A DNA stretch of 64,000 nt from assembly GCA_016930255.1 (NCBI GenBank), contig JAFGHB010000040.1, positions 5,187 to 69,186 of the forward strand, written 5' to 3'. The translations under genes and the position numbers were made by a program. Shown here piece after piece: positions 4,476 through 63,243 of the stretch. The DNA comes from Methanomicrobia archaeon (GTDB taxonomy: Archaea > Halobacteriota > Syntropharchaeia > Alkanophagales > Methanospirareceae). The notes below the pieces were generated by a model. That model saw only the letters and a list, made by a program, of their open reading frames with translations, did not search any database and had not been told where the DNA came from. The number at the start of each line of letters is the position of its first letter. The stretch's first letter is position 1.

Positions 4476-4853
4476 ATGAAACGGGAGAAGGTACTGGTGG
4501 CAGAGCGGTCCACTTTTATGCGTATTATGGTTACCACGGCATTAGAAAGACTTGGGTTTGAAGTTGTAGGTATGGCGAAGGATGGTGAAGATGCCGTTAC
4601 GAAATATATGGAACTGAAGCCTGATATTACGCTTGTGGATATCGGGTTAGAGGGCATTGATGGCATCGAAGTAACACGTAGGATAGTAAAAGAGGATCCC
4701 GCCGCGTTGGTTCTTATACTCATCGCGGAATCTATTGATATTCCTGACATCATAGTCGAAGCGGTGCGGGCAGGAGCGAAGGGATATATAAAGAAGCCTC
4801 TCTCAGAGACTGAAATAGAGAAGCGCATAAGCGGCGCATTAGGAAGGAGCTGA
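4476..4853 (+). CDS. stand-alone CheY-like response regulator receiver
   Basis: KVLVAERSTFMR…PDITLVDIGLEGIDGIEV…LVLILIAES…GYIKKPL: receiver-domain hallmarks in a 125-aa protein. Confidence 0.8.
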   Translation: MKREKVLVAERSTFMRIMVTTALERLGFEVVGMAKDGEDAVTKYMELKPDITLVDIGLEGIDGIEVTRRIVKEDPAALVLILIAESIDIPDIIVEAVRAGAKGYIKKPLSETEIEKRISGALGRS

Positions 4854-10663: not shown

Positions 10664-10677
10664 CGGAAGAATAAGCT

Positions 10678-11568
10678 ATGAGTATAGAGAGTGAAGCGGC
10701 ACCCAAAAGTGGAACAGTATCAGATCTATTTCGCGGTTATTTCAGGGGGAGACGAGAGAAGTACACGAAACTCAGGGAGAACCTTTTGAGAGCGAGGATC
10801 TTCGTTCCTGTAGAGAGATGGTTATCAAGAGCGATTTTCTACTCGATCTTCGCGGCAGTTGGGGTGGTGGCGGGCTATATCCTCCTGAAGTATCTTATTC
10901 TCTCTTTGCTGTCCGAGTTTTCACTGGGATTAACCGACCTTGTTGTTAGCGTCATGTTCGCGGCAATTGCATTTTTCGTCTCGTACATCAGCTTTTATCT
11001 GTATCCCAGAATACGGGTGTGGGAGCGAAGGGGGAAGATCGATGCGAACCTGCCGTATGCTATCGGGTTCATATCGGCGATGGCATCTATCGGGGTGTTT
11101 CCTTATACGATCTTTAAGAAGCTTTCAGAAGCGGAGGAGACGTATGGCGAGGTGAGCAATGAGTTGAAGCTGGTAGTGCGGGATGTGGAATTGCTGGGTT
11201 TCGATTTCATCACGTCACTCAAAAGACTCGTCGCGACCACGCCGTCTATGAACATGAGAACGTTCTTGCAGGGGGCGGTCACCACGGCCCTTTCTGGCGG
11301 CGAGATGGGTACATACTTTGTTAATACAGCAGAAGAATACATGGAAGAGCGGAGGAAGAGATATGAGAGCTTTATTGAGACGTTGGGCTTTTTTGCGGAG
11401 TTTTACGTTATCGGGTTGGTTACGGCCCCGCTCTTGCTGGTGGTGGTGCTCTCGATAATGGTTTTTCTCGGCGGCGCTTCTCTTACAGGACTTGCAGCAA
11501 TTGTCTACATTGTCATCCCGCTGGGCTCCACAGCGTTTATCTTTTTGATTGGCACATTATCGGACTAA
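10678..11568 (+). CDS. TadB/FlaJ-like polytopic membrane protein (type II secretion system F-domain, first half)
   Basis: 296-aa multi-TM protein immediately after the FlaI-like ATPase. Length and hydropathy fit one T2SSF domain. Confidence 0.65.
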   Translation: MSIESEAAPKSGTVSDLFRGYFRGRREKYTKLRENLLRARIFVPVERWLSRAIFYSIFAAVGVVAGYILLKYLILSLLSEFSLGLTDLVVSVMFAAIAFFVSYISFYLYPRIRVWERRGKIDANLPYAIGFISAMASIGVFPYTIFKKLSEAEETYGEVSNELKLVVRDVELLGFDFITSLKRLVATTPSMNMRTFLQGAVTTALSGGEMGTYFVNTAEEYMEERRKRYESFIETLGFFAEFYVIGLVTAPLLLVVVLSIMVFLGGASLTGLAAIVYIVIPLGSTAFIFLIGTLSD

Positions 11569-11575
11569 GAGGGAA

Positions 11576-12517
11576 ATGAAAGAGGATAAGCTTCTTGAGG
11601 CGATAGAGAAGAAGAGGAAAGAGAAGCGGATAGTACGAATCATCAGAGACCCTATAGGGCTCTTCAGGGATAACCCACTGCGATTGGGGTACGTCTCAGG
11701 TGCGATTGGTATCTGTCTCATGATTATGTCATATCTCTACGCGTGGGAATTTGTAGCACCATACGATGCGTACATCTTATCAGGTATCGTCGCGGTTATT
11801 CCCCCGGCAGCATATCTGTATGCGGAGCAAAAACGAGTGCGGAAGGCGGATGACGAATTCCCGAGCTTACTGCGTGACCTTGCACAGGCGAAGCGCGCGG
11901 GTCTCACCTTGATCGATGCACTTACGCTTACCGCCGAGGGGAATTATGGTGTGCTTACACCCGGGCTGAAGACGCTTGCGTATCACCTGACCTGGGGTCT
12001 TTCTTTTGAGGACGCACTGCGGATGTTTGCAAAGCGGTACCCCACGCGAATAATCAAACGGTCGATCGAAATAATTATAGAAGGCTATCAGGTAGGTGGT
12101 GATGTAGGCGAAATCCTGAAAGTTGCGGCGGAGGATGTCATGGAGTTGCGAGCGCTGGAAAAGCGGAGGATTTCTGATATGGGGCAGTATGTACTCATCT
12201 GCTACGTTACCTTCTTTGTGTTCCTTGGCGTCTTGGTGGTGCTCTATCAATCGTTTATTCCAATGATGGTAGAAGCTTCGGAGAAGGTAGCGGGGACTGG
12301 GGCAGGTTCTTTTATGGTTAGTGTAGATGTGGTAACACTGAAGATGCTGTTCTTTCACTGTAGTATCATCCAGGGTATCAGTGCGGGGCTAGTGGCGGGA
12401 AAGTTAGGTGAAGGGCAAATTGTTTCTGGTCTGAAGCACGCGACTGTGTTAGCATTAGCAACCTTCGTCGTATTTGCCATTTTGAAATTCCTGCCACCGA
12501 TGACCGTATCTCTATGA
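11576..12517 (+). CDS. TadC/FlaJ-like polytopic membrane protein (T2SSF-domain, second half)
   Basis: Start moved to ATG 11576 (MKEDKLLEAIEKKRKEK…), preceded by GAGGG 4 nt upstream. The upstream gene stops at 11568. …AKRAGLTLIDALTLTAEG…GYQVGGDVGEIL… are T2SSF-like motifs. Confidence 0.65.
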   Translation: MKEDKLLEAIEKKRKEKRIVRIIRDPIGLFRDNPLRLGYVSGAIGICLMIMSYLYAWEFVAPYDAYILSGIVAVIPPAAYLYAEQKRVRKADDEFPSLLRDLAQAKRAGLTLIDALTLTAEGNYGVLTPGLKTLAYHLTWGLSFEDALRMFAKRYPTRIIKRSIEIIIEGYQVGGDVGEILKVAAEDVMELRALEKRRISDMGQYVLICYVTFFVFLGVLVVLYQSFIPMMVEASEKVAGTGAGSFMVSVDVVTLKMLFFHCSIIQGISAGLVAGKLGEGQIVSGLKHATVLALATFVVFAILKFLPPMTVSL

Positions 12518-13152: not shown

Positions 13153-15750
13153 TTATCTAAACCACAAAACTAATTGGACTTCATAGACGTTATATCCCGT
13201 CCCCCGTGGGTCCCGTGCATATACCAATTTATCCACCGCGACCGCCTGGGGGCCGGGCAGTCCGTGTTCGACCTTTGCGGTTCCATCAAGCATGATTTCC
13301 CCGGTGTCATCAAGGAAGTAGAGATTGTATTCGATATACTCGGGGAGGACCTCGTCGATCTTTTCGTCAAGTCCGTTCCAATCTCTATTCTCTACGGCAC
13401 GCATCAATGCACTGGTGGCGATCAAATCGACACTCCAGTCGTGGAGTACTGGCGTGTAACGATTGTCCGAGGTGCTTAATTCCGCGTATAATCGTATCGA
13501 ACTCACGCCGGAATCACGAAGAAGGCCAAGGTCATAACCTTGTGCTGCCTCAGCAGCGGTGATAGTATCGCAGATCGTGGAATTATCGGTGGCATTTAAA
13601 ATTTTAAACGAGATGGCTGTACCTTCAAGTGACGAGGTGTACGAGGAGGCGTAAAACTTATTCCAGCTTCTTGATGAGGTCGCAGTTATGGGCACGGACG
13701 TGAGATTGGCCGAAAACTCGTAGCCTATACCAGAGACAACGACTTTAAGGTAATCGGAATGGAGAGAGTGATGACCTTTACAGGGAAATGGTTCCTTTAC
13801 CGATGTGATATGATAGTAGCTCTCGTAAGGATAATCCTCGGGATGGAGGTATCGCGGAATCATCCATTTCGTGTACGCGTACGGCGTGTACGTCAAGTTG
13901 TAAAGGAGGTCCAAATTATAGATCTTGTCTTCCGGGACAACAGAACCGACTAAGTCGTAGTAGCCCGAAGCGCAGAAAATATAAGTTCTATCAAGACCTT
14001 CGGTAGTATTCATGGCGGGGAATCTGAAGGTTATAAAATCCCCTTGGGTTATACGAGCATACCCCGTGTCGGTATCTGTTACGTTTTCAAGGACATCTTC
14101 TACCGTCCCGTTAACGTACCGCGTCTCGGCTTCAATCGGGCGTATCCAAGTACTCGTAACGGGACTATCAGGAGAATAGTCTACCGCCACGTAGTCAAAA
14201 TCATGACAGGCAAACGGTATAACGATCCGTATCTGGTTACCAACATTTGCCGTAAGGTTCAAGGGAATAACTTTAGGAGCCACGTCGAAATAGATGGACG
14301 AGATAGGGATAGCGGAGTGGGTGTACCAGGCGGTACCGTTCCAGAACTGGATGAGGGGTGCAACCGTCTCAAAAATCGTCTGGTCGAGTTGCGTGGCAAA
14401 TTCCTCATCGGTTTCAACCAGATCAAGCAGGTATTCACAATTAGGTGTGCCGAGCAGGTAATGATTGTAATACCATAATTTCAACTCGGTAAAATCCGTG
14501 ATTCGCATGTTCACCAGCAATTTCGCTTCGCTTTCATTCTTTGGCAGGGTTATCGTAATCCAATCGTATAAGTTATGTGTATCGTTAAAGTCCCTCGTTG
14601 TTGATACGTTGCTCCCCCAGAAATCGAGGTCTTGCGCTGCCAACGCCCCGGTTATGTCCTTCCCTTCGTTATCAACGGCCGAGACAGGAAGCGGATTGGT
14701 TATTGTATGCAGGGTTCCGTAATCGTCAGGCAAAACGGAGGTATTTTCGGGGTGCTCTACAACCTGCAGATCTAAACTGTTTATGTAACCGTCATCCGGT
14801 AACGCCATGAAGACAATCGCTTCGTAACATCCGTTTTTAACGGCTAAATTCGTTGTCGTCACAAAACTCGAGCCCTCGTATCGCGCATTAAAACTGCCCG
14901 TGAAGAGAAGATCTAAAAGCTCGTATTCCTCGCCAGTCCATCCGTAGATGAAAGGACAACCGCTTTCCTCTGCACTGGCAAGAACAGTTATGGTCTCGCC
15001 TGAAATAAAATCTTCTGCATCGGTTACCGACCCGTTCAACCATCCTTCGGTACCCATTGCGTCTTCGGTTTGCAATCGATGCCAGATACCTACTGAATGA
15101 TCCCAGATCCAAAGCGTAGTATCGTAGCCCGAACTTCCTGTACCATGCCCTTCCCAGGAAATATTTAGTTCTGATATCGTGCTCGGGGACTCATTAATGG
15201 TAACGTTATACAGTTGGATATTATAATCAACACCACCAAGCCTCCAAATATCAGTCACCCACCGGTTATCATCAGATGTCGAGAGGGAGGTATAATTGCT
15301 TGACGAAGCAGGATCGCCCTGATCATTTGGATCTGAGGGGATGTCTTCGTCTTCCCACGCCCACTTATTTGTGCCCGCGCCACTGCTGAAGTCATACGTT
15401 CTGGTAAACGGATTATTTTCGATCCGAATATCGCCACCGCTTAAGTTTATACTATTGTTGTCATCGATATACTGATGACTTTCATTGCCGCTGAACTCAT
15501 CAGTCCATGAGATGTTGCCCGTTGTGATATTCCCCGTTACGTTAATCACCGTTATATTTGCCTCGGGATAGAACGAGATCACCATGAGCGCATCTTCGCC
15601 ATACTTCTGCAACTGCACGGCGGAATAGCCCTGCTGCTGTGGTGCGTAGGCGAGCATCACGAACGTGAGAGCGCTCAGCATAAGCAGTGCTGAGATTACC
15701 GCCTCGAGGGTCTGCATCTGCGCTTTTTTATCCAACATTTCGGTTACCAC
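13153..15750 (-). CDS. large pilin-like protein with class III (type IV prepilin-like) signal peptide; putative minor pilin/adhesin
   Basis: MVTEMLDKKA|QMQTLEAVISALLMLSALTFVML: KKA at -3..-1, Q at +1, TLE at +4..+6, hydrophobic helix. The 865-aa body is very rich in N-x-S/T sequons. Confidence 0.65.
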   Translation of the reverse strand: MVTEMLDKKAQMQTLEAVISALLMLSALTFVMLAYAPQQQGYSAVQLQKYGEDALMVISFYPEANITVINVTGNITTGNISWTDEFSGNESHQYIDDNNSINLSGGDIRIENNPFTRTYDFSSGAGTNKWAWEDEDIPSDPNDQGDPASSSNYTSLSTSDDNRWVTDIWRLGGVDYNIQLYNVTINESPSTISELNISWEGHGTGSSGYDTTLWIWDHSVGIWHRLQTEDAMGTEGWLNGSVTDAEDFISGETITVLASAEESGCPFIYGWTGEEYELLDLLFTGSFNARYEGSSFVTTTNLAVKNGCYEAIVFMALPDDGYINSLDLQVVEHPENTSVLPDDYGTLHTITNPLPVSAVDNEGKDITGALAAQDLDFWGSNVSTTRDFNDTHNLYDWITITLPKNESEAKLLVNMRITDFTELKLWYYNHYLLGTPNCEYLLDLVETDEEFATQLDQTIFETVAPLIQFWNGTAWYTHSAIPISSIYFDVAPKVIPLNLTANVGNQIRIVIPFACHDFDYVAVDYSPDSPVTSTWIRPIEAETRYVNGTVEDVLENVTDTDTGYARITQGDFITFRFPAMNTTEGLDRTYIFCASGYYDLVGSVVPEDKIYNLDLLYNLTYTPYAYTKWMIPRYLHPEDYPYESYYHITSVKEPFPCKGHHSLHSDYLKVVVSGIGYEFSANLTSVPITATSSRSWNKFYASSYTSSLEGTAISFKILNATDNSTICDTITAAEAAQGYDLGLLRDSGVSSIRLYAELSTSDNRYTPVLHDWSVDLIATSALMRAVENRDWNGLDEKIDEVLPEYIEYNLYFLDDTGEIMLDGTAKVEHGLPGPQAVAVDKLVYARDPRGTGYNVYEVQLVLWFR

Positions 15751-16382
15751 ACCAGCATTCTCATGGTATAATAATCGTAATCATAGTCCATATCTCTTAT
15801 AATCGGAACGACAACGATCCGTTCAATAACGACCACGTCGCCGGATAAGCCTTTACGTACCGCGTCAAAGTTATCATCCGCAACATCCTGCGAAAACGTG
15901 GATTCGTTGGTTGGTATGACCTGTATATAGCACCCATAGCCCCGGTATCCGCCGGAGGCATTCCCTTGTAAGCCGAGTGCTGCGGTAGCACTTCGATATT
16001 TGGTGCTTCCGACAGCGTCTTCCCCAAATTCCCACCAGGTGTTATTACCCGATGTATTCGAGGACATTAGCGCATCCAACTTTGCACGATCGAGCACGTT
16101 TGGTTTTGACTGATCGGAAAGGCCAATTCTCACGACGGCCGAGTAGTTGCCCTCGATCCAGAGTGCATCCCAATCGGCAGGTTCACCGGGGTCTTTAATC
16201 AGGATTTCAGCGACACGGTGTGCGACGGGATAGATCTTTGCGGATTCACCGGAATACGAGGCTGTTGACGCGGCGAGCAGGTAGTAGGTGAGTAAGAACG
16301 CACCGATAAAGATGCCGATAGCGACAAGGAAGTCAATGCTTAACGCCTGCGCGTTCTCATCAGCCACCAGTTTCCTTTTCAT
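15744..16382 (-). CDS. pilin-like protein with class III-type signal peptide
   Basis: MKRKLVADENA|QALSIDFLVAIGIFIGAFLL. Overlaps the upstream gene by 7 nt, consistent with an operon. Confidence 0.55.
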   Translation of the reverse strand: MKRKLVADENAQALSIDFLVAIGIFIGAFLLTYYLLAASTASYSGESAKIYPVAHRVAEILIKDPGEPADWDALWIEGNYSAVVRIGLSDQSKPNVLDRAKLDALMSSNTSGNNTWWEFGEDAVGSTKYRSATAALGLQGNASGGYRGYGCYIQVIPTNESTFSQDVADDNFDAVRKGLSGDVVVIERIVVVPIIRDMDYDYDYYTMRMLVW

Positions 16383-16498: not shown

Positions 16499-16978
16499 CT
16501 ATACGTTTTCAAGTGTTATATTATTCCCGCTTTTTGTTATCCGTACTCGTGTGGACAGAGCGCTGGATGCGGTTCCGGTTACGTTTACCGTCATCGCATT
16601 GCCCCGGCCTTCGGTATTTAACGGGACGTAGACCGTTACTTCGGCGGAATAAATTTTGAGTGCAGGTCTGTTGAGATAATCAGAAGAAACTTCAATAGAA
16701 TACCCGGTCACCGTGTCCTCGCTACTACCAATTTGATAGGGGATCTTGAGCGTTCTCGTGGCATTCGTGCAGTTGGTGAGGTACATATCATTGATCGTGT
16801 CCGAGATCTGGTTACCTAACCCTGCGTACTGTATGGTTATCGATTGCTTTGCCGCGTCGGCCACCAACCCGTTAAAAAGCAAAACAACGGTGGTCATGAG
16901 AGCTACCGCTAACGAAATAAGAATGGCGTACTCCAACGTTAGTGAGACCGCTTTTTCATCGTGTATGAAGTTCTTCAT
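16499..16978 (-). CDS. pilin-like protein with class III-type signal peptide
   Basis: Start moved to MKNFIHDEKA|VSLTLEYAILISLAVALMTTVVLL, giving K at -2, A at -1 and TLE at +4..+6. Confidence 0.55.
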   Translation of the reverse strand: MKNFIHDEKAVSLTLEYAILISLAVALMTTVVLLFNGLVADAAKQSITIQYAGLGNQISDTINDMYLTNCTNATRTLKIPYQIGSSEDTVTGYSIEVSSDYLNRPALKIYSAEVTVYVPLNTEGRGNAMTVNVTGTASSALSTRVRITKSGNNITLENV

Positions 16979-17317
16979 GTTCTGCTTATAACTACAGCGC
17001 TCCACGTATTTGTTATTTCATCCAGTCTTTAAAAAGGAAATGTGACGTTCTATCCATTCGAAACTAATTCCGTTCCTTGCGCGCCGATTCCCGAGTCATC
17101 ACCGATACTCCTGTTCAGTATAGGTCTGCTGGCACTTGTCGGATACGTACTGCATGTGAAGCGATTCGGATTGACCTTGCGAGTGTGTATGGGGCTCTTT
17201 ACGGGATCCTTCACGTACTTCAGAGAGTATGGTATGGCCGTACAACCTCTTGACAGTACGCTACTTTTATATACTCCTTTATCTTATCGCATGTTTAATA
17301 TACTAATGAGCTAACAA

Positions 17318-18097
17318 ATGCTGCGTATTATAAAATCCAACGAAGCGATTTCACCGGTTATCGGTATGGCACTAATACTGGGGATCGTCGTTACGGCAGT
17401 AGGGATTATCTATTCGGTGGAAATGCCAAAGATCGAATCTGCCAAGGAAGAAGCACAGCTGGAGAATATGCGCAGCAATTTCCTCACCCTTCAAACTGAT
17501 ATCAGAGACCTCGTCCAATCGCCTTCTACGGGCCGGGTGACCAAGATGCAACTGGAGGCCGGCTCAATAGGAGCGTATGCGGCCGGGTCTGCAAATGGCA
17601 CGGGATATATCCGCTACATCGCGGGCGACGATATCATAGCATACGAGAACGGCGCGGTCTTCGCCAAATATGCCGGCGGGAACGACTATGCCGAAGTGAT
17701 CAGCGACCCGATCATGTACGTTGACGTTGATGACGATAATGTTACCCACGTGTATATCCATGCTATCACACTAAACGGCAGCAAATCCGTTGCCGGTACC
17801 GGCCCTGCTGAGTTCGCCCTGACACAAGGGAAACACACTAAGAAGCACGACAATGTAGAAACGAACAATCTGATATTCCACATAAACAGCACGTTCTATC
17901 GTGGCTGGGAAGAGTATTTCAGGGAGATATTCGCTTATGCAGACCTAGAGGAGGGCCCTCTGAACAACTCAGACTGCAACGTCTCCACTTCAGATGAAGA
18001 TGAGAGTGTAACCATCTTCATAGAGGGGAAAGAGTGGTCGGGAGACGAATACGATATAACGCTCTACTATGTGAAGACCGAGGTGATTGTATCATAG
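17318..18097 (+). CDS. archaeal type IV pilin (archaeal pilin N-terminal domain)
   Basis: MLRIIKSNEA|ISPVIGMALILGIVVTAVGIIY matches the archaeal pilin N-domain consensus (…A.SPVIG..L…). A TATA-like TTTAATATAC lies about 25 nt upstream. Confidence 0.7.
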   Translation: MLRIIKSNEAISPVIGMALILGIVVTAVGIIYSVEMPKIESAKEEAQLENMRSNFLTLQTDIRDLVQSPSTGRVTKMQLEAGSIGAYAAGSANGTGYIRYIAGDDIIAYENGAVFAKYAGGNDYAEVISDPIMYVDVDDDNVTHVYIHAITLNGSKSVAGTGPAEFALTQGKHTKKHDNVETNNLIFHINSTFYRGWEEYFREIFAYADLEEGPLNNSDCNVSTSDEDESVTIFIEGKEWSGDEYDITLYYVKTEVIVS

Positions 18098-18988
18098 ATG
18101 AAACAGATCTTCCTCTGTTTGATAGTGGCGTTACTGGCATGTGCCGTTGCTGCTGTCGGCACTACTATGGCGTATGATCCTCTATTTTGGATTGAAGAAC
18201 CTCAAACCACACAGTTGAACATGACCATCACACAGTGGGACGAGACCACGATGAGCTGGGAAGTGCCAGTCGATTCGGTGTATTACATCGAGTCACCGAT
18301 AAACATTATGGTGAAATACCCGGGCGGAGCTAACGCTACGAATGCAACAATAAATATTACCGGTCCCGGGTCCACCACTCACCCGGAGTTGACCACGAAC
18401 GCGACAGGACAGGCGAATTACACCTTTAATTATACAGAGATAACACGGGGTGGGCAGCAGATCGTTGTTAAAGCAGTAAAACCCGGAGCCGCGTACGCGC
18501 AACAGAATATTTACGTGGACTACCAGGGGATTTTGGAAGTGAGCGTGCGTACCGATAGCATGGTTATTGATTCCGATTATGGGAATTATTGGAACTCCGA
18601 TGCGGATATGTACTACACCGTTATTGTACGCGATTCCGCAACCGCTTCGAAAGATCCCGTGGAAGGTGTTAAGGTCACTATGACTCATGATGCGAATACG
18701 AATCACGTTTATATGGATGAGGGAACCAACCCCAATAAGAGTTGCCAGATAGCATATACTGATAACGACGGCGAAGCTACGTTTTCCGTGCACAGCGATT
18801 CCGTTACGGAACTCGAGGGTACTCTCTTTACCATAACCACCGAGCGGAGGGGTTATATGCCTGATAGCGCAACATTTAATGCCCCTTCTGATATTACTGT
18901 TGTACCGGTTAAAGGCGCGTTTGCAACCGTGGTAGCCTTCTTGGTTGCATCTCGCTTAGCGCGGACGCGGAGAACGCATAAACGATGA
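18098..18988 (+). CDS. secreted cell-surface protein (paralog A)
   Basis: Signal peptide (LCLIVALLACAVAAVGTTMA). Shares extended similarity with 19068-20387 (…SWEVPxDSxYYIExP…ELTTNATG…YTFxYTEITRGxQQIxVKAxKPG…). Start lies 1 nt after the previous stop. Confidence 0.7.
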   Translation: MKQIFLCLIVALLACAVAAVGTTMAYDPLFWIEEPQTTQLNMTITQWDETTMSWEVPVDSVYYIESPINIMVKYPGGANATNATINITGPGSTTHPELTTNATGQANYTFNYTEITRGGQQIVVKAVKPGAAYAQQNIYVDYQGILEVSVRTDSMVIDSDYGNYWNSDADMYYTVIVRDSATASKDPVEGVKVTMTHDANTNHVYMDEGTNPNKSCQIAYTDNDGEATFSVHSDSVTELEGTLFTITTERRGYMPDSATFNAPSDITVVPVKGAFATVVAFLVASRLARTRRTHKR

Positions 18989-19067
18989 TACATTTTAGAA
19001 ATCGTGGGGAGTCCAATAACGGAACGGGAATGAAACAGGTGCATAAGAGGGGGATGATGATGGTACA

Positions 19068-20387
19068 ATGAGAAGAAGCACCCTTTCTCTTTGTTGTAGT
19101 ATTCTATGTCTGGTTATCGTCGCCGTTTCAGTCGGTACGGCAGCGACAACACCATATGTCCCAGAATTCTGGGTTGATACTGGTCATACCGCGGAGTTGA
19201 ACATAACGATGTGGAACGAAACAACGCATAGCTGGGAAGTTCCAAGTGATTCGCTGTATTATATCGAGACGCCGGTTATCATTAACGTGACGAACAAAGA
19301 CGACGAGCCCGTTGAAAATGCAACGGTAACCATTACGGGACACAACACCTACGCGGAGCTAACCACGAACGCCACGGGCATTGCGAATCCTGTTTACACG
19401 TTTGATTATACAGAAATAACACGGGGTGAGCAGCAGATAGCGGTAAAAGCGATAAAGCCCGGATACGCGTACGCGACAGCGATTATCTACGTTGACTATA
19501 GAGGAATCTTGGAGATAAGCGTGCGTACCGATAGCATTTATGTTGATGCTAATATTTGGAATCCCGACAATTCAGATGCTGAGATATACTATACGATTAT
19601 TGTAAGTGATTCTTCAAAGGCTTCGAAAGACCCTGTAGATAGTGTTAATGTTACTATATCTCATGATGCTGACACCGATTACGTTTCGCTGGATTGTATG
19701 CCTCCAGGCTGCAAGATCAATTTTCAAACAGTAGATACCGATGAGAATGGCGAAGTCTCGTTTTCCGTTCACACTACTGAAGTCGGAGAACTCCAAGGCG
19801 CTGTTTTTACGGCAACCGCGGAGAAAGAGGGATACATGTCGGATAGCATGATGTTTACTGCTCCGTTGACGGTTGAGTGTTTCATCGCAACGGCAGCCTA
19901 CGACTCGCCGGTTGATGAGCATCTCGAGGTCTTACGCGCGTTCCGGGATACGGTACTGCTCACCAATCCCGTGGGAAGATTCATCGTGGGCACGTACTAT
20001 ACCACCAGTCCTCCGATCGCGGATGCAGTAGCGGAGAGCGATAATTTGCGTGCGGCAACGCGGCTGTTCCTGCTGACACCGTTAATTTACCTTTCCGCGA
20101 TCTGCCTGAATACGATGGCGTTTGCCGCTTTTGTCGTTCTCATGCTTATCCTGCTCTTCGTACTGAAACGGCACGTGAAAGTGCTCCTGAAGGGCATTGG
20201 CTATGGGGCTTTAACCGTTGCTGCCTTTACGGTTACGGTCTTTACACTGGGCGCACTCGGCTATGAACTCCCAGTCTGTGCAGCGATAGCAGCCTTTTTA
20301 TTGCCCCTGATTATTCCCGCGGCGGTTGCCGTTTGTATAATTGTGTGGATAGAATCGCGATCGCAGTCGATCGCAGTCGAAACCTAA
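19068..20387 (+). CDS. secreted cell-surface protein (paralog B) with extra C-terminal CFIATAAY…LRAFRD domain and TM anchor
   Basis: Paralogous to 18098-18988 over about 270 aa. It adds …CFIATAAYDSPVDEHLEVLRAFRDTVLLTNPVGRFIVGTYYTTSPPIADAV… followed by hydrophobic segments. Confidence 0.7.
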   Translation: MRRSTLSLCCSILCLVIVAVSVGTAATTPYVPEFWVDTGHTAELNITMWNETTHSWEVPSDSLYYIETPVIINVTNKDDEPVENATVTITGHNTYAELTTNATGIANPVYTFDYTEITRGEQQIAVKAIKPGYAYATAIIYVDYRGILEISVRTDSIYVDANIWNPDNSDAEIYYTIIVSDSSKASKDPVDSVNVTISHDADTDYVSLDCMPPGCKINFQTVDTDENGEVSFSVHTTEVGELQGAVFTATAEKEGYMSDSMMFTAPLTVECFIATAAYDSPVDEHLEVLRAFRDTVLLTNPVGRFIVGTYYTTSPPIADAVAESDNLRAATRLFLLTPLIYLSAICLNTMAFAAFVVLMLILLFVLKRHVKVLLKGIGYGALTVAAFTVTVFTLGALGYELPVCAAIAAFLLPLIIPAAVAVCIIVWIESRSQSIAVET

Positions 20388-20607
20388 AACGTTACCGTAG
20401 CCTTTTTAAACGGTGAAAAAACGGAGATTTATTACAGAGATTCGTACCAATTCCATTCCATTCAATTCACTTCACGGCGCTCCTTGAAAAGAAAACCACG
20501 AACGACCCGCGTGGAAAAATCATGACGATTAGAGCAACAAGCAATATTGCCTCCCGTGAGCAATAGCACCTATATTTCATTATATAAGCAACACGCAGGA
20601 TATAGGT

Positions 20608-22936
20608 ATGGCGGAATGCTGCAAGGTCGAACCGAGGGAGCATGCTAGGCAGACTATGAAAAAGAAACGGGAAACGTTACTCCAGGACACCCATGCCCTA
20701 TCCGAAGTGGTGGGTTTCGTCTTGATCATGGGCATTCTCCTTGCTGTAACCTCCATTTACATCGCGCAGCAGGTCCCGGAATTGACGAAGGATTATGAAG
20801 CACGGCACGCAGAAGAGGTCGTCGATGATTTCTCAGACCTGGACTCGCTTGTTGACGGCATCGTGCTCGTTGCCAAACTGGAAGAAGTAACCTCAGGATC
20901 AGCAGCCACCAAATCAATAACGATGTCGCCTGGTAGAGTACCGCTCTTCGGCATGTCTCCCGCGGGCGCAATTCTCTCGTTCTCGCCTTATGAAGAAGCA
21001 CTCTTCACGATCTTACCCTACGCCGGTGGCGGTTCACTTCCTACCGGTCCATCAGCTAACTATTCCATGGAAGAGAGCACGACCGCTAATTTTAGTCATG
21101 CAAACGCAACGAGGGTGAACGTGGACATCTCGTTCGATCAAATCACACTTGCACGCATGGGTATTAGCGGCGATCTCACCCTTAATAATATGGTTACGAC
21201 TCTCAGCGGTGAGCATCAATACGATACGATAACCATCACGAACAACAGCATCGTTTACCTCGTGCCCGGTAATTACCTGAGGCTCTACGCCAATACGATT
21301 CTCATTGACGCCACCTCCTCCGTCATCGCGGATGGCAAGGGTTACGCGGGTGGTGTCGGTGGTCAAATTGGGAGTGGTGCGGGCTTTGGATCCTTTGGCT
21401 TTAACGGTAGTGGCGGCGGTGGTGCTGGCCACGGTGGCGAAGGTGGAGACGGTGGTCGTGGAGGACTCTCCCTGGAAAAGGGAATCGCAACTGATATTGG
21501 GAACGGTGGAATCTTTTACGGTGATAACTTGTCTACATCTTTTGAATTCGGGTCTGGTGGTGGCGGTGGCGGCTATGGTGAGGGAGGTCAAGGAGCACCG
21601 CACCAAGGCCAGGTCGGGGGAACTGGTGGGTACGGTGGCGGAGTCGTGGTACTGGACGCAGCACTGATACGAATTGCTGGTAACATTTCCGCTGACGGTG
21701 ATGATGGGACTGATGGTTCTGAAGCCAAATATGCATCCGGCGGTGGCGGGGGTGGCAGTGGCGGTACCATCCTCATCCGGGGATATGAAGTGAATCTCTC
21801 CTCAGCGACGCTCTCGGCACGAGGTGGTGCAGGGGGCGACGGTGGTACGAGAACTACAGGAAGTGGAAAGAATGGGGCTGGGGGGGGGCGGTGGTGCAGG
21901 CGGGCGAATAAAAATATTTTACGATAATGTATCGCTCTATACCGTTCCATCAAGTCTTCCTGTGAATGGTGGTACCGGTGGTATCAACGGGGGTGTTGGT
22001 GCAGAGGATGGCGTTAACGGAAATTCTGGCATTCCTTACGCGAATGAAACGACATACATCTCTACCGTTCCGCATTATGAAGATGGTTACTACGTCTCCC
22101 GTGTCTATGATACGGGCAATACCACGACGTGCTATGGTAATATGTCATGGGACGCTACGACCGATGAATATACTCCTCTAACGCTGAAAGTACGAACGAG
22201 CATATACCCTGATATGACGGGTGCCGCGCTCTGGCCGAACTGCCCCGTGGTAGCAAATGGACAGGACATCTCCGCGTTATCTTCGGCATTCGATATGCAT
22301 CGATACATTCAGTTCCGCGCAGATTTATCAACCTATGACACCACGACAACGCCCGTTCTGGATTGTGTACGCATCAATTACTCCTCGCACTGCCTTGCGG
22401 GTGACGATGAGGGGGCCGTCATCGATTCGGCTGCCGGCATCGTCAAGTTCCGCAGCAGTTATATCTATTACCCCAACCAGGAAATCTTGTACGAACACGG
22501 AGCGGTGATTCGTGCTCAGACGATCGATGATGAGAAAAAGGGTTTTGTGATTCACGATCCCCCTATTACGATCGGAACGGACAATGCGACCGGTGCGCCT
22601 CTACTGCGGATTTCTATGGTCGATTTAACCGGCTCGAACTATTCCTATGCCGGCTCAAGGAGCGCCTCTGTGGAAACGTCCTACGCTGACTATGTCCATC
22701 TTGCGGGCACCATCGCCTTTGATAATTTGTCCCTTGACTTAACTACGGAGTATCCGTCTATCTGGCAGAGCTGGTTTAATGCGCAGCTTGCAGAATCCGA
22801 CTTAGATGCGTCGTATTATAATCCTCCGGTCGTTAACGAATCCGCAGGAACTGTGGTGGTCGAGTTTTACGGGCACGGATACGGTGTGCAGTTGTACGAG
22901 GAAAAGACCACGGTTAACGTAGAGATAACAACGTAA
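20608..22936 (+). CDS. ~780-aa glycine-rich pilin-like surface protein, reading frame interrupted at a G9 homopolymer
   Basis: N-terminus …MKKKRETLLQDTHA|LSEVVGFVLIMGILLAVTSIY resembles an archaeal pilin N-domain. Body has GGxGG/GDGG-rich repeats. ORFs 20608-21927 (frame 1) and 21824-22936 (frame 2) join by a +1 shift in the G-run at 21880-21888, giving …GKNGAGGG|GGAGGRIKIFYDN… A TATA-like ATTATATAAG lies about 25 nt upstream. Confidence 0.65.
21880..21888 (+). repeat. G9 homopolymer at the frameshift point of the glycine-rich gene
   Basis: ctgGGGGGGGGcgg seen directly in the sequence. Frame 1 gives sensible protein before it and frame 2 after it. Confidence 0.9.
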
Positions 22937-23304
22937 AAGTAGCCGTGCCATAATAAACGTACACTGACAAAATTATTCTTTGAATTCCAACTCTTGTGCG
23001 AAACTCGCGGCCGCTTCTAAATCTCTCTCATGGGGTCTGTCTGCCCTTCTTTACGCCACCTATTAGTCATAGCGGCCATACAGTATCATCAAATACCACG
23101 GCACGAGAATGCGCGCCAATAATGTCGAAACCACGCCCAAAAATGTAGTATTTGTTTGCTCTGCTTTAGCTAGCGGAGGTACAATTTTGAGTTTCTTCTC
23201 AATCGTGATTGTCACCGGATAAGCTTCTTCTCCAACTTTTTTACCACAATTCACTTCTCGCATGCATAATACTACATCAAATTTTCTTTGAGAAGTAAGC
23301 TAAG

Positions 23305-25242
<1,938 letters not shown>

Positions 25243-25280: not shown

Positions 25281-25706
25281 TTACCTGACGCCCCAGGTCA
25301 GCCGGCTTTCGAAGAGATAATTCAAGAGGAACGCGCAGATAATCCCTACGATATTCGACAACAGGTAATATACGCCCATGTGCTCGGTCAAGAAGTAAAG
25401 AACGCCGATATTGACCGCCAAGCCGCCGGAACGCCAAATATTGCTCTTGATTATGCGTTTCACGAATTGCTCGACGTGCGTGGTTTTTTGCTCCTTGAAG
25501 GTCCAGCGATCGTTCATGAGGAATTGCAGGATAATGGCGATTTCAATGGCGATTGCCGAGGAATAAAGGTAGTACACTCTCGCGACGTCGGTAAAGAGCC
25601 AGAGAAACCACGTGTTAATGCCTGCACCGATAACGCCGACAACTGAGAACTTGGTCAGGCGAAGGAAGTCCGTCTTCAGAGCCACTACGCGATCCGGTAA
25701 TTTCAT
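25281..25706 (-). CDS. GtrA-family small membrane protein
   Basis: Start moved to ATG 25706 (MKLPDRVVALKTDFLRLTKFSVVGVIGAGINTWFLWLF…) because the longer ORF would overlap the tRNA. Four predicted TM helices, GtrA-like. Confidence 0.6.
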   Translation of the reverse strand: MKLPDRVVALKTDFLRLTKFSVVGVIGAGINTWFLWLFTDVARVYYLYSSAIAIEIAIILQFLMNDRWTFKEQKTTHVEQFVKRIIKSNIWRSGGLAVNIGVLYFLTEHMGVYYLLSNIVGIICAFLLNYLFESRLTWGVR

Positions 25707-25780
25707 CGTTCGACCATAGAAGTATAGCGTCACAAAACAAAAGGGTTTTTCTTTTCTCGTGTTAAAAAGAGAAAAAGGAA

Positions 25781-25863
25781 GCGGAGGTTGCCGAGTGGAC
25801 AAAGGCGTGAGGTTCAGGGCCTCATCTCGCAGGGGTTCGGGAGTTCGAATCTCCCCCTCCGCA
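25781..25863 (+). tRNA. tRNA-Leu(CAG): tRNA-Leu (anticodon CAG), type II with long variable arm
   Basis: GCGGAGG acceptor stem, GCC/GGC D-stem, anticodon stem TGAGG/CCTCA with loop TTCAGGG (anticodon CAG). 14-nt variable arm, T-arm GGGAG-TTCGAAT-CTCCC, discriminator A. No encoded CCA. Confidence 0.85.
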
Positions 25864-25921
25864 TAAATAGTTCCTGTATACTCCAGTATTGTGCGATACT
25901 TCCTTGCTCGCCTACCTTTTC

Positions 25922-28900
25922 TCAGTACAACCGTATCGCTGGTATCCAATTTGTGTGAATTTCCCCATTTGCATCTTCAAATGAAGTGCACGTTATCACT
26001 CCACCGGTTGCATTCCATGACGGCTCGTTGATGATCTGCGGGTACGAGCCCGTGCGGATGGTGTAGTAGTAGGTTTCGTTTGCGTGGAGGGTAAAGGATT
26101 CGTTAAACGACAGATTGTGCCAGTCTTCGGAATAACCCTTCCAGTAGGCTTCGGCTATCTTGGTACCATTTGAGTATGAAATAGCAGCGTATTCGGTATG
26201 TCCACCTGTTCCTGGACAGGAATACGTATAAAGCTTCTGCACAATCATCGTTTGATCCGGCGTGATTGTCCCATTGTGTACGCCGCAGATACTCGGATAA
26301 GGATTTGCTGAGGAGCCGGTGTCGAAGACCACCGCTTCAGACACCACATTCCACACCCACGTCTGCATAGCCGTGCCATTTGTATTCGTAGCGATTGCCG
26401 AGACGTTATGCTCACCGACTACTTCCGCATGCAGCCTGTAACTGGCTTCCGTTACGCTCTCATTTGTAAATAGGAACGAACCATTCAGATACCAGCTCAC
26501 GTTTACCGTTTGATTCACCGTCACGTTAAACGTCCTCCAGGTGCAGACGGTATCGTTAACCGGTGATGGAGGTGCGAAGGACGTGATGATTGGCAACAGA
26601 ACTTCTTTGAAATTCCGCAGGCCCGGCGTAGGACCATCGACATCAGCACCACCGGTATTCTCCCAATCACTGCCATCGTCCGTATCTGTGCTCTCCTTGT
26701 CCCTGCCGAGCGATTGCCCCTGAACCGGAGCTTCCGGGTTCGTTCCAGTCCATGAAGTCCCATTCGGCGGCTCATTTGTGTTATTGCCGTATCTCACGAA
26801 GTCTTTACCCGTGCCGTCAGCAGATAGCAGGCTTATACTCTCGTTGGTATTGTACAACACTTCGGAAGTGAACCCACCATAAAGATCCTCTGCAGACGTA
26901 TCAAGCGTGCCTCCGATGTGGAATACGAGATACGAACCAGCTTCTAAAACACCGTCCCAATCAGAATCATTCGCTGGTATGGTGTAGTTCACTGGTATGG
27001 TGTAGTTCAGATCGCCGTCCCCGTCCACGATCCGCCAGCCGGTAAGATTGACCGCAGATTCTCCCGCATTATAAAGCTCGATCCATTCTTCTTTCGCACC
27101 TTGCGTAGCATTTGGATAGGGATAAACTTCGTTTAGCACTATGTGCGACGGCGCGACTGTGAAGCTCGTCTCGGCCACGAGCTTCTCTTCCTCTGTCACC
27201 ATCGCCCGTCCCACGTATTTCGGCAGTTCTATATCGCTTACCTCGAAGGTTACCGGCTGCGGTGTTTCACCTATCTCCAGGCCTTCTGCGGCAATTTCTT
27301 CGTATAACATGCCGCCGCCGGTTTCAATCCTCAACATGGGGTTAACAGAGTGTGTCTCCCCGTCCGTGCTCACGATAGTGGCGTAAACGGTGAGATCATT
27401 TCCGTCCACAACGTGCGTCTCTTCCACTCCTATCGGCGCGGTGTACGTCAGATTCAACACGAGTTTGTCGTAAACGGTTGTTTGGTTAATCGTTCCGTTA
27501 ACCTGCCATGCCGTTACCGAACCAAAGACGCGATCTCTATTCGTGAAGGGATCATACTCAGAGCCGTTTACAAAAAGCACGTCTGGGAACAACTCGCCGG
27601 TATATAGTTCCATTTCCATTATATCACTAAAATTCACTTCTTCTTCCCACTTTGATTCTGGTCTCACATTCGGCTGGGAAATATTATACACCTTGTATAC
27701 TGTTGCATTCGCTAACGAGACGTTTGAAATATTACCGCCTACCGGGAGGTCATACTCAAAATAGAGTAACGGCAATGCGGAGTAATTGTCTTCATCGAAC
27801 ATAAGCCGGTCAATATCCGTGAAGTATATCTCCACAACACTCCCATTGAAATCGTTCATCTCGACGGGCACCGGAACGTCAAAGGTTATAGTAACCTCCC
27901 ACTCCTGAGTCTCTGAATCGAAGACGGGCGTGCCATAGCTCACTTTCCCATCTCCAGAAGCTGGTGGATCTATCTTAACCGAGGAAAGCCCGAAGAGGTT
28001 GAACTCATGTTTCGTCAGTGCGACTGAAGCCTGGGAACTATCATATCTCTTTGTCCAGAGATCGTTTCTATCCAAGGTGTCGATTGCACTTATATAAGCG
28101 CATCCAATCGTTTCTTCCCTAATAATCTCGTCAAGCACCTGTGGTATAAGCTCATCTGACGCTCCTGCTTTTGCAATCGCTGTGGCACCAATATAGGATA
28201 ATGTCCCGTTCCGCAAGAACGCAGTGGTGATGCAATCCTTCTCCCAGATCCTGCTCGAGCCACAACTGGCTGCGATGACCAATGAAGGCGATAACTCCGG
28301 CACTTCGTTTACATCCAGAGTTACATTGTCATCTGATCTAGTATCAGTAGCCTGCCAAATAGTATTTCCAGCAGCATCCTTACTATAAGTATAACCGTTA
28401 AGATTACTTATATCCCAGGTAGAAGTCCAGCTATGTCCGCTATAAAATACAATTCCCTTGCCAGGTAAATTCTTTATCAGAGTGGTATCAATGAGGTCTG
28501 TACTGTTTAAATAATCGTCAACGTCAGGTACATTATCAACGCCTGTGAAAGCTGGATCCTCATCGTACAACCAATCAACTTCCATATATTCAAATTCTGA
28601 TATGTCCTCGTCAACCAGCCCATCACCGTCGTTATCCGTGCCGTCTAAGATCTCTTCATCCACAAACGGCTCGAAATCGCCGGGGAATGGTTTTATCCAG
28701 CCCGGATCCGCATTTAAACCCGCGCGGTCCCCCTCAAAAACAATTTGATCTCCAGCACCCCATTCCCCATCCCTATCTATGTCTCTAAATATCTCAACGT
28801 ATCCAGTGAATGTTCCTGCTGCAAAGCCAGGTTCATCTGCTATGTAGTCATAGTCGTCGTTGAAACCACTTTTTTGTCCATGATACTGTGGAAGGTCTGG

Positions 28901-31900
28901 AATATACTCTATCGGAGCTTCTTTCCACCATCTATCATTGTGGTCGTGGAGCCTTGACCAGTCTGTTCTATCAAAAGCGTACCATGCACTACCCAAACCA
29001 CCCCCATGCGCAGATGGCTTCTCATACAACTGCATTAGATTACCCTTTTTACTACTATCATTCAGTTTATCGCCAGCCCAGACCACAGACTCAAGCCACC
29101 AAACACGGTTATCGGCCCAGCGCCGTTTACCGTCTGTATTGTAGATACCCACCGCCAAGAACTCCCTCTCCCAGTCACCGCGCTCTCCAACGTCGAGCTC
29201 GGCAAATTGTAACGCGCGTGCCATATAGTTCACATTATCTTCGCTATACAGCGGCATTCGTCCACCCGGTAGTATGTTCGTGTGTGCATGGTAATAGCGG
29301 TAATCACTTGCTATCCAATCCTTGTCAGCATCTGTTGGATTAAATTCGAAAGGTTCTTGCTCTATGCCAAACGGCAAAGAACTCGCATCCCCCACCAGGT
29401 AAAGCGTTGCGGGCTGCCATCTGAAGATATAGAGTAAGGTGCGAGTGGCCATATAGGTGGAGATGAAGCCGTTGAGGTCGTGCTCGTGTGCCGCATTGTC
29501 TACAGTGCTTCTTACAAGGTTGGTTAGGGGATATAATCCTGCATAGCTATTATTGGTATAGTTAACCGGTGTACTCACCACATCCCGAACATCAAGAATC
29601 ATTGATTTGTAAAACGCTGCGAGCGGTGCGGCTGCAGCGGAAGAGTTCGCCCATGAATTGGTTACCACAATGCTCGACGACTTGTCACCAAACGCTTCTA
29701 AGACCTCGTTGAACAGATCTGTTGGCCCTCTGTTAGTAAGCGGTTCTACCGCACATCCTTTCACGATCAGCGTCCGGTTCTCTTCCAGATTCAGATTTTT
29801 CGTGTCATTGATTATGGCTCCGACAGCAGTTTTATCATCGGCAATCACGAGGATGAACGTGATGTTCAAGTTCTCGATGAGCTTTTTTGCTTCCATCTGG
29901 TTTTTCAGCAAGGAAGAAGGTGCCATCGGCCAGTTGAGGTAGGAAGCAATGGGTGCACCCATAATCGCGGATTCCCGCGTATCATTGACGATAACGATGC
30001 CCGAGGAGTTCTTCCAGAAGGCCGTAAACGTCTCTTCGGCATTCGAGGTGAAATTGCTGATACTGAGAAAAACAGTCCCGTTTGGATAGTCAATGCCATC
30101 GAACTCGGTCGCGATGTCAAGCAGCTCATTGAGGGACATCGTAATTGGATTGTAATGTCTGGTAGGTGTACCCTTCTTGGACGTTTTGGCATCGTCATCG
30201 AACCATATCGCAATGGGCACGGCGTAGACGGCGCTTTCAATGCTATCGGCTAAATAGCCCCTACCGTCTGCGTCTGCCTTCTTCACGCCTTTACCAAACG
30301 GAAATTCCATCGTGACCGTGTTATTCGTCTTATTCGCATCTGTTACCGTATTATCAGGGTTGATGATAGCCGTGATATTAAAAGGGAAAGGACTGAGCTT
30401 AATCCCTTTTATTGACCATGAGACGTTCCAGCCGTCGAAGGAGACATTGACGCTCGTGTTTGTGGGTATGTCGACCGTTTTATTCTGGATCGCCATGCCG
30501 TTGACCACGAGGCGAACCGTGACGTTGGAAACGTTGAAGGAGGCATTCGTATGAACAGTCACGTTTACCGTGGCATTCTCGCCACTTACCAGTAAGGTAG
30601 GAACGACGAGATTCGATATGTAGAGATCAATCATCAAAGGATGGTAATCGCCGCCATGTGTGATATTCCCGGAGCTGTTATAGGGCAGGAGCGTGTCACC
30701 CAGTTCGTCACCATCCACCTCCTCGCCCGGATAATCGCTCCAGTAGTTGCCACCTAAACAAGGCCCGCCAATGATGTTCGTGCCATTCGCTCTGGTGATA
30801 TTCCAGGTGTTCTCACCGTCGTCGTACGCGTTGTGCATATTGTTGAAGAAGTTGTTGTAGATGAGGTTGTCGTTCGAATAAACCAGAGCTATGCCAAATT
30901 CGAGGTTCGCGTTTACCGTGTTGTTTATAATACGGTTGTCATTCGAAGTATCCAAGCAAATGCCATAGCAGAGGTTATCCGATGCGGTATTGTTTGATAT
31001 GATGTTGGTTCTTGACCAATCCAAGTAGATGCCACTGCCATTGTTGTTCGAGCAGGTATTGTTTGTAATGGTGTTGTAGAACGAGTCATACGAGCCAATG
31101 CCGTCATCTTCATTGTTTGAAGCAGTATTATTTGCTACAGTATTGTTTTCAGAAAAAAACAAAACGATGCCATCGTAGTTCATCGATACATTGTTGTTTG
31201 TAATGGTGTTCTCAGAACCGCCCCCGCTGATACCATAATAATTATTTGTCAATGTATTGTTACTAAGGGTATTATTACAGCCATCCAACTTTATTCCTGA
31301 ACTCATGCCTCCAACAGTGCCGTAAGCCCCGAAACCATAGCGAAGTGCATCGCCAACACTGGCGTTTAGCTCTCCTAACGGGATCTTAAACTCGTATATA
31401 CGGTGCTCGTAGGGCACGGAGGAGGTGTACTGGAATCCGATGGCACCCCATTCGGTCTCCATACAGGAGACACGGAACTCGCGCAGTGCTCCGTCCACCA
31501 TCACAAAAATCGCGCCCCAATCTTCCTCGTCCGGCGTATTGTCTGGCGTGACCTCAACGGCAGCATACAAATACGCGCCGTCGCTGTGTAACCAGCCGTA
31601 GGTGTAGCCGTCAGGATGCGGTGTATCAGGCCTCCAGAAGACACTGAAGTCAGGTTCCTCCCGCTCTTCAAGCACACCATCCACCTTGATGCCACCATCG
31701 TCAACAATGGTGTGCGAGAGCGTATACCCCTTACGAAGCAGAGGATAATAGAGGGGACTGCCATGACTCTTCCCGAGGTCCTCTTCCATTGCACGCATCA
31801 CCAACGTGGTATTCTCAGGCACGTTCTCCCAGCTTATCTCCACCGTGCTATTCCAGGCGTCGCAGACATCGTACTCAGGAGTGCGTATTTTATACAACAC

Positions 31901-34441: not shown

Positions 34442-35089
34442 GTGATAGTTACACCTCCCGTACCGAAATATGTTCACATGTCCATATAAAACTTTAGCTT
34501 TTGACCTACAGATAGAATATTATATGCAAAAAATTAGGCAGGTAAGATAAGATCAAAAGGACGTTTTTAACTAATAAGGGGAAGTAGCCTCGATGAGGTA
34601 TAATAAGCTCTTCTATATTTGTACCGGTCTCAATTCCCTCGGGATGCAGCAGTCGTTCGATTCCAGAAGCTCAAAAAATCGTTATAAGAGGCTTCGTTCG
34701 TGTAGATCCGTTAATAAAAAGGGTAATGTCGTGAATAGAAGTTGGTTAGAGAGAAAAAGCGATGCCCATGCTGCCAGAAGAAGCTATGAAAAAGCGATGA
34801 ATACGGAAGAAAAAGAATGAAAAAAGACGGCTGAGACCAGTTGACAGCCTTATTTTTTCTAAATAAAAGGTATGATCCACTTTTCTAAATTATAAATGGC
34901 TATTAACGAATAAAAACACAAAATAAGCTCTAAAATTGCTCTATTCCGGCATTTTTACCAGTAAATACGTGTCCTAATCTCCCCCTCCGCATGCTTTTTC
35001 CTTACATGTACGAGCCTGCTCTACCTCCTCCGATCGCGTGTTAAGACTTATGTGCGCCGAACATAAACAAAAGACACGAGGATACTCAC

Positions 35090-63097: not shown

Positions 63098-63243
63098 CCA
63101 CGCCGGATGCGAGAAGTGCCGGCACACGAAGGTTTTTTTTTCTCCACTCAGTTCGAGAGAATGCGAAACGATCAAAGGTGGCGAACGGCTCGTGGTGTGG
63201 TGACGATGCAAAATTTAAATGTACTGCCGTTCTCTTCAAAGAT

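Follow-up and report, generated by a model that had tools for sequence, protein, structure and literature searches.

The window, by which we mean the whole 64-kb stretch of archaeal DNA that was analysed, contains a pilus locus in which a T2SSE-type ATPase and two T2SSF platform proteins are accompanied by pilin-like genes of the DUF7266, DUF7287, DUF7288 and DUF7289 families (Table 1). Literature searches on DUF7289, DUF7288, DUF7287 and DUF7266 found nothing relevant, nor did those on the run and locus-tag identifiers. The gene described here belongs to this locus and is distributed over two reading frames. Its orthologues at four other loci (L002, L005, L015 and L016) directly adjoin the same ATPase and platform genes. 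Judging from its domain and its neighbourhood, the product is probably a minor pilin or a pilus-associated adhesin of the adjacent T2SSE/T2SSF machinery. A role as minor pilin or adhesin has been predicted (Makarova et al. 2016, PMC4858521) for large proteins with class III signal peptides that are encoded in archaeal pilus loci.

A homopolymer scan of the complete window showed that the gene includes a run of exactly nine Gs. No other homopolymer of G or C in the 64 kb reaches 7 nucleotides, and the longest other G run is 6. A T9 tract is present at positions 63133-63141 of the window. A frame-1 ORF (20608-21927) encodes 439 aa, or 423 aa when counted from the ATG at 20656, and frame 2 is open from 21794 to 22936. 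The two ORFs overlap by 104 nt, and no comparable pair was found among the approximately 50 ORFs mapped in the window. The original prediction held that a +1 shift inside the G9 run breaks one gene and proposed re-translation with one G removed as a check. Its coordinates and junction sequence were correct, and the removal of one G joined both parts in one open frame. This frame encodes 776 aa, or 759 aa if the ATG at 20656 is used, reads ...GKNGAGGGGGAGGRIKIFYDNVSLYTV... and gives NGAGGGGGAGGR as the junction peptide of the full-length product. The initiation codon had been placed at 20608 in that prediction; apart from this, the 439-aa version was seen only in a Logan gene call. Both the homologues and the NCBI annotation favour a start at 20656, and the upstream extension is probably untranslated. 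The frame-2 part (JW878_06140) does not have a signal peptide of its own.

Table 1. Positions of the split gene, its parts and the neighbouring pilus genes in the window.
Feature	Position	Strand	Basis and remarks
Pilus assembly genes	7882-12517	+	Pfam; includes a 292-aa protein
T2SSE-type ATPase	8750-10663	+	Pfam
Two T2SSF platform proteins	10678-11568, 11549-12517	+	Pfam
DUF7288 gene	13153-15750	-	Pfam
DUF7287 gene	15744-16382	-	Pfam
DUF7266 gene	16499-17005	-	Pfam
DUF7289 + Pilin_N gene	17318-18097	+	Pfam
Two MG4-like paralogues	18098-20387		
Upstream in-frame ATG extension MAECCKVEPREHARQT	20608-20655	+	Without counterpart in most homologues
N-terminal 410 codons, frame 1	20656-21885	+	tblastn; homologues start near MKKK...; NCBI JW878_06135 = MBN1762635.1, 423 aa including the out-of-frame tail
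Pilin-like N-terminus, DUF7289 profile 2-52	20695-20838	+	Pfam match, residues 14-61
Glycine-rich central module, approximately residues 171-460, spanning the frameshift	21166-22036	+	Structure model; short-strand, solenoid-like rungs
G9 homopolymer, +1 frameshift site	21880-21888	+	With G8 in frame: GGG GGG GGC GGT GGT = GGGGG
Out-of-frame tail of the truncated product RWCRRANKNILR, then TAA stop	21889-21927	+	ORF translation
C-terminal 349 codons and stop, frame 2	21887-22936	+	tblastn; NCBI JW878_06140 = MBN1762636.1, 354 aa, from ATG 21872
C-terminal DUF7289 part, profile 108-206, frame 2	22475-22798	+	Pfam

Two reading frames of one gene

The frame-1 ORF and the frame-2 reading that ends at 22936 were confirmed, well beyond what chance would give, to be two halves of one gene, because homologues align across the join, a single Pfam domain is divided between the frames, and the tblastn matches of the restored protein abut. 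The alignment of the restored 759-aa protein with 26 full-length homologues (46-69% identity) covered its entire length. In none of the 26 was there a gap at the join, which falls within the near-invariant motif GGGGGGGAGGRIKIFY. The DUF7289 model, which is one Pfam entry, matched with profile positions 2-52 in frame 1 and 108-206 in frame 2. When the restored protein was compared to the window by tblastn, residues 1-411 were found in frame 1 (100% identity) and residues 407-759 in frame 2 (99.7%). At other loci tblastn identified about 22 intact copies, each in one frame, and three split copies (L018, L020 and L021) were retrieved afterwards.

Among 5.8 billion proteins searched with the restored sequence, there were about 45 full-length relatives (690-805 aa), many of which had 100% query coverage and 40-67% identity. 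The sole entry with 100% identity was MBN1762635.1, the 423-aa N-terminal fragment from the 'Methanomicrobia archaeon' MAG. The protein had been announced as a giant one; at about 760 aa, it is not. The first locus scans, designed from the full-length alignment, selected patterns made of little else than glycine (GGGGGGSGG and GGG[AS]GGRIK) and were swamped, returning one unrelated-looking Dehalococcoidia locus and none in metagenomes. A rescan designed from the C-terminal alignment returned 7 loci.

Architecture of the restored protein

The restored protein matched Pfam DUF7289 (PF23960) in two stretches with a score of 43.7 bits, the cut-off being 27, and the same family was named by precomputed matches on the homologues. 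Pilin_N had no match on the restored protein in Pfam. The N-terminus carries a predicted class III signal peptide, MKKKRETLLQDTHA/LSEVVGFVLIMGILLAVTSIYI, also written MKKKRETLLQDTHA/LSEVVGFVLIMGILLAV..., which was recognized by inspection as a short charged leader followed by a hydrophobic helix. The residues A14, at the predicted -1 position, and G20 are invariant, with Ala found in all 27 aligned sequences, and the structure model has a helix at residues 12-43. Residues ~171-460 were modelled with a pLDDT of about 80 as short repeated strands in a solenoid-like arrangement. The remainder of the protein is beta-rich and poorly modelled, and the mean pLDDT is 57 overall. Comparison of the model with PDB structures produced nothing significant, and the central glycine-rich module belongs to no Pfam family. 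The glycine-rich part also matched the flavoenzyme CrmK in phmmer (E = 9e-6); we discounted this match as a probable effect of composition, the query being rich in glycine.

Its sequence places the protein among the archaeal type IV pilin-like proteins, in the DUF7289 family, with a predicted insert of ~540 aa. The insert appears, in the model, to consist of the glycine-rich solenoid-like module and a further beta-rich domain, which together would interrupt the DUF7289 pilin fold. Thus, the pilin-like N-terminus and the glycine-rich repeats of the original prediction were retained, but its beta-helix-like C-terminal half was not, since the solenoid-like part occupies the middle.

In a profile search across 1.84 billion representatives, the threshold of E<=1e-30 admitted 171 proteins and that of E<=1e-10 admitted 2321, the latter matching mostly over profile positions ~130-590. 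The full architecture was limited to about a dozen 50% clusters in this search. The central module recurs in many proteins of 1000-7000 aa, including a bacterial one from Dehalococcoidia. Modular type IV pilins are known from Streptococcus sanguinis, where PilB and PilC have an extra module appended at the pilin C-terminus. The protein described here resembles them in combining a pilin module and a large extra functional module in one polypeptide. The difference is that, as the sequence suggests, its module is inserted between the N-terminal helix and the C-terminal pilin part, an arrangement that the model is too weak to confirm. There is also a likeness to the large class III proteins of Makarova et al. 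2016 (PMC4858521), which have a pilin-type N-terminus, are large, and are encoded beside T2SSE/TadC-type machinery and small pilin-like genes. However, that work does not describe a DUF7289 domain split by a glycine-rich module, and the present protein is connected with the DUF2341 adhesins of that work only through some distant matches of the glycine-rich part that also carry DUF2341.

The G9 tract in assemblies and in related genes

The tract could be compared in a second assembly. A Logan contig of 3328 nt (L017, run SRR13394437) is an exact substring of the window (20173-23500), G9 included, and has the same two gene calls. G9 is the only length on record for this tract, in two assemblies, and no length polymorphism was observed. 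An ENA fragment of the split gene begins with MCIRDS, which we take to be a translated Nextera adapter and, with it, a sign of Illumina reads. Illumina sequencing reads one base per cycle, and the length of a 9-mer is rarely wrong in most reads. The map of about 50 ORFs revealed no other split genes in the window, and an A8 run (61882-61889) inside a MiaB-like gene is in frame. An error of the assembler is unlikely, because the second assembly, made from the raw reads, agrees on G9 and the window contains no further split gene.

Nonetheless, the two assemblies were probably built from the same reads, and behind the G9 consensus there might be a subpopulation with G8 or a systematic artefact at the library or read level. 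If such an artefact were the explanation, the true genome would have G8 and an intact gene, and the additional G, introduced by slippage during library PCR or by base calling, would have been inherited by both assemblies, which probably derive from one run. The break is located exactly at the longest G/C homopolymer of the window, in a metagenome-assembled genome, and in a gene that, once restored, has no decay. Furthermore, a second MAG of the family is broken in a G10 tract, as an error specific to such tracts predicts. Against this, an independent assembler working on the raw reads arrived at the same G9 in a contig that extends 1.5 kb to either side, the adapter remnant suggests Illumina chemistry, and the rest of the window is free of split genes and keeps its A8 run in frame within a gene. 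We consider an artefact of this kind rather unlikely. A junction-spanning protein search detected no in-frame G8 allele of the window lineage at 90% identity or more, although known close relatives were also missed by this search and its retrieval was incomplete.

The comparison with orthologues suggested in the original prediction gave a mixed outcome: the closest orthologues are intact, and three more distant copies, all derived from metagenomes, are split at positions that differ from that in the window. The copy in an ANME-1-THS MAG (L018) has a 1-nt deletion near residue 400, outside any long homopolymer, and adjoins an intact paralogue. That in a Methanophagales MAG (L020; GCA_023134055.1, JAGLVH010001284.1) is in three pieces, with breaks at about residues 163 and 295. 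One of these breaks is inside a G10 tract (2583-2592), and removal of one G rejoins the frames, while the second is away from any homopolymer. In the third copy (L021), 17 nt near residue 227 are perfectly duplicated in tandem. Truncated remnants adjoin intact copies at three loci (L009, L014 and L016), and several relatives have two or three paralogues with PIN/AF2212-type toxin-antitoxin genes between them. We considered a break point shared by the four split copies but dismissed it, the breaks being at residues ~163, 227, 295, 400 and 411. These differing positions speak against a conserved programmed site and argue for recurrent decay or turnover, with the G-rich DNA that codes for glycine as a mutational weak point. 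Both tracts of at least 8 Gs in the family, the G9 of the window and the G10 of the Methanophagales copy, are out of frame, an observation that fits either hypermutable tracts or a sequencing error specific to them.

In 18 homologous genes the same glycine run is encoded by a mixture of GGT, GGC and GGA codons, and the longest G run at this place is 2-6. None of 10 intact homologues has a G run longer than 7 anywhere in the gene. Synonymous shuffles of the glycine codons generated a run of at least 8 Gs in 20% of cases with the codon usage of the gene and in 46% with that of the window; therefore, an ancestral G8 needs no selective explanation. The RNA flanking the run did not fold better than shuffled sequences (z = +0.19, -0.70 and -0.91), and the run is followed by CGG, which accounts for 23% of Arg codons and so is not rare. 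No flanking inverted repeats of the type that would form an invertible switch were found around the gene. A conserved phase-variation or recoding site was not supported, because the tract is absent in the 18 homologous genes, G8 is frequent in the shuffles, and flanking RNA structure was not detected.

Origin and meaning of the frameshift

Of the 105 alignment columns without variation among the other 26 sequences, the restored protein keeps 104, and its retention score for conserved columns is at the level of the family (0.97; family mean, 0.963). This conservation at the family average points to a frameshift that is very recent, reversible, or artefactual. The original prediction listed three explanations, a homopolymer sequencing error, phase variation of a surface adhesin and a fresh pseudogene, and gave preference to none. 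Assembly error is unlikely in view of the G9 in the second assembly, phase variation is unsupported, and a fresh frameshift allele fits best, since nearly all invariant columns are kept and other split or truncated copies exist in relatives. We therefore regard as probable a genuine and recent slippage insertion that changed G8 into G9 in the gene for a pilus-associated surface protein, leaving an allele that is null but revertible in principle. The events may have been as follows. The glycine run happened to be coded as GGG GGG GGC, which created a G8 tract, and slippage during replication would then have added one G. The dominant genotype in the sample would specify an N-terminal fragment of 411 aa, followed by a nonsense tail of 12 aa, in which the C-terminal half of the pilin domain would be missing, and at most a leaderless C-terminal fragment would be made in addition. 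The G9 allele would consequently be null in effect. The event would be very recent, and it would be reversible in principle because tracts of G8 or G9 are intrinsically mutable. The tract itself would be a chance by-product of the coding of glycine, neither a selected switch nor a recoding signal.

Phase variation would give the same genotype another meaning. The tract would be a poly-G contingency locus at which slipped-strand mispairing switches an adhesin between an on state (G8 or G11) and an off state (G9 or G10), and the sample would be mostly off. The tract is long enough for hypermutability and is located in a gene for a surface or pilus protein, a classic target of switches. Homopolymer on/off switches are documented in prokaryotes (PMC2831843, PMC10334774). 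Both halves of the gene are perfectly preserved, as a reversible off state would require, and a second member of the family is broken in a different poly-G tract, the G10 described above. As in a contingency gene, an in-frame homopolymer of at least about 7 nucleotides sets the frame by its length. However, the tract is neither kept in orthologues, with no more than G6 at the site in 18 of 18 homologous genes, nor longer than codon usage leads to expect, G8 arising by chance in the shuffles at the frequencies given above. In addition, the tract is in the middle of the gene rather than near its 5' end, G9 is the only length recorded, and the other breaks in the family (the 1-nt deletion, the 17-nt duplication and the non-homopolymer break of the Methanophagales copy) resemble decay and not switching. 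Adaptive phase variation is thus improbable. That the poly-G tracts of the glycine-coding region, G9 here and G10 in the Methanophagales copy, are true slipped-strand on/off switches of a pilus-associated adhesin, operating within populations of uncultured archaea that cycle methane or alkanes, is very improbable as well. If they were, they would be the first case in which homopolymer phase variation of a surface structure is shown in Archaea; to our knowledge, none has been shown earlier.

The full-length protein might also be produced from the G9 DNA by programmed recoding, either through slippage of the RNA polymerase or through +1 ribosomal frameshifting with re-pairing of tRNA-Gly from GGG to GGG. 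By our own reasoning, nine identical bases would permit perfect re-pairing after a slip of one nucleotide, and the product would equal that of the G8 gene. Productive transcriptional slippage is known on runs of A or T, and G:C hybrids slip poorly. A programmed shift is expected to show a conserved site together with a stimulatory RNA structure or an adjacent rare codon. Yet no homologue conserves the site, stimulatory structure is absent both upstream and downstream, and the CGG that follows is common and hence not a 'hungry' codon. Recoding is accordingly the explanation that we find extremely unlikely.

Most likely the lesion is a slippage mutation of the ordinary kind and of very recent date rather than a regulated switch or a recoding signal. 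The nearest likeness among switches is that of Neisseria pilC, whose poly-G phase variation was reportedly described by Jonsson et al. in 1991. In both cases a poly-G tract lies in the coding region of the gene for a type IV pilus-associated adhesin, putatively so here, and a change of one G abolishes the protein. In pilC the tract is conserved and located in the signal-peptide region, and both its length variation and the on/off switching have been shown, whereas the tract in the window is lineage-specific, mid-gene, within the length expected by chance, without observed length variation, and in an archaeal host. Reversible homopolymer frameshifts have also been described in the poly-C of Mycobacterium tuberculosis glpK and the poly-A of Listeria inlA (10.1101/717272, PMC10334774 and PMC2831843). 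These cases share with the present one a short homopolymer in an otherwise normal gene, the gain of one base, a transient null allele, and no other decay. They differ in that numerous isolates have been sequenced and reversion experiments carried out for them, while here there is one metagenomic genotype.

A direct consequence of these results is a correction of the annotation, the 'hypothetical proteins' JW878_06135 and JW878_06140 being one disrupted gene. The frameshift documents a typical homopolymer event of a known kind and matters little by itself. If real G8/G9 heterogeneity were present in the reads, the gene would become a rare phase-variation candidate in an archaeon. The analysis also defines a conserved and previously undescribed architecture, a DUF7289 pilin combined with a solenoid-like, glycine-rich module. 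This module lacks a Pfam family but is found in more than 2000 representative proteins. The architecture adjoins the pilus machinery of Methanophagales-related archaea, a group in whose biology cell-cell contact is central. In related MAGs the copies of the gene are often multiplied, truncated or frameshifted, which suggests a rapid turnover of this surface component.

Split homologues of the DUF7289 gene

The G9 frameshift in the DUF7289 pilin-like gene was compared with split copies of its homologues. The homologue in a Methanophagales MAG (L020; GCA_023134055.1, JAGLVH010001284.1) is distributed over three ORFs, and one of the breaks coincides with a G10 tract (2583-2592). Removal of one G from this tract rejoins the frames. 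The G10 tract is located at a different glycine run from that of the window G9, and the break is the second, independent poly-G frameshift of the family. Two more split copies carry other lesions. The copy in locus L021 contains a perfect 17-nt tandem duplication (4814-4847; two copies of TGGGTGGTGACGAGGGG), and that of ANME-1-THS (L018, about 3860-3881) has an apparent 1-nt deletion and adjoins an intact paralogue.

No Pfam family matched the glycine-rich module in the centre of the protein or the domain after it (window 21166-22400, residues about 130-590). Nonetheless, more than 2000 representative proteins match this region at E<=1e-10. Many of them are 1000-7000 amino acids long, and bacterial proteins are included, such as that encoded at a Dehalococcoidia locus (L001).

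Other tracts, an adapter remnant and other genes

Two other homopolymers are associated with a MiaB-like radical-SAM gene. An A8 tract (61882-61889) lies in frame 30 nt into the gene, and a T9 tract (63133-63141), directly past its stop codon, is probably the T-run of a terminator. A 663-nt ENA contig encodes a protein, P0097, that is a 100% identical fragment of the DUF7289 protein and whose first residues are MCIRDS. These residues presumably arise from translation of ATGTGTATAAGAGACAG, the Nextera mosaic-end adapter; therefore, the start of P0097 was read as untrimmed adapter left in a public assembly.

Other features of the window are listed in the table. No Rfam match was found in the window at the gathering threshold. 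Since the predicted tRNA falls inside an ORF call (25281-25949, minus strand), the GtrA-like gene is probably shorter than this call, as it is in the orthologous contig L005 (141 aa).

Other features in the window
Feature	Position	Strand	Characteristics
Tandem paralogues with MG4-like domain	18098-18988 and 19068-20387		DNA about 74% identical over several hundred nt; the second also has a CFI-box-CTERM domain and a multi-pass hydrophobic tail
tRNA-Leu(CAG)	25781-25863	+	ARAGORN prediction
2851-aa protein, intact	25922-34477	-	Many NosD or right-handed beta-helix repeats; lamin-tail domain
Fused restriction-modification protein, 1238 aa	47653-51369	-	Eco57I/MmeI type; N6_Mtase and TaqI_C domains

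Gene order, paralogues and coexisting versions

In the closest orthologous contigs, L005 (5983-10322) and L014 (3410-9238), gyrB precedes the orthologue, and both share one strand. In the window (20608-25218), unlike in these contigs, the DUF7289 gene is convergent with gyrB and lies apart from the T2SSF genes, with additional pilin-like genes in between. Because of these differences, the gene order indicates a putative local inversion or rearrangement. Relative to the same two contigs, the gene for the 2851-aa beta-helix protein is inserted between MatE and GtrA/gyrB.

Two or three paralogues and truncated remnants are found in relatives (L015, 2652-12217; L016, 1767-12214; L021, 2726-7163), where they alternate with PIN, AF2212-like or PemK toxin-antitoxin genes in arrays that adjoin the pilus ATPase and platform genes. 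The sequencing run that contains the window G9 contig also includes, from a related organism, an intact 778-aa orthologue (L013, Logan contig SRR13394437_132817; 65% identical). One sample therefore contains both broken and intact members of the family.
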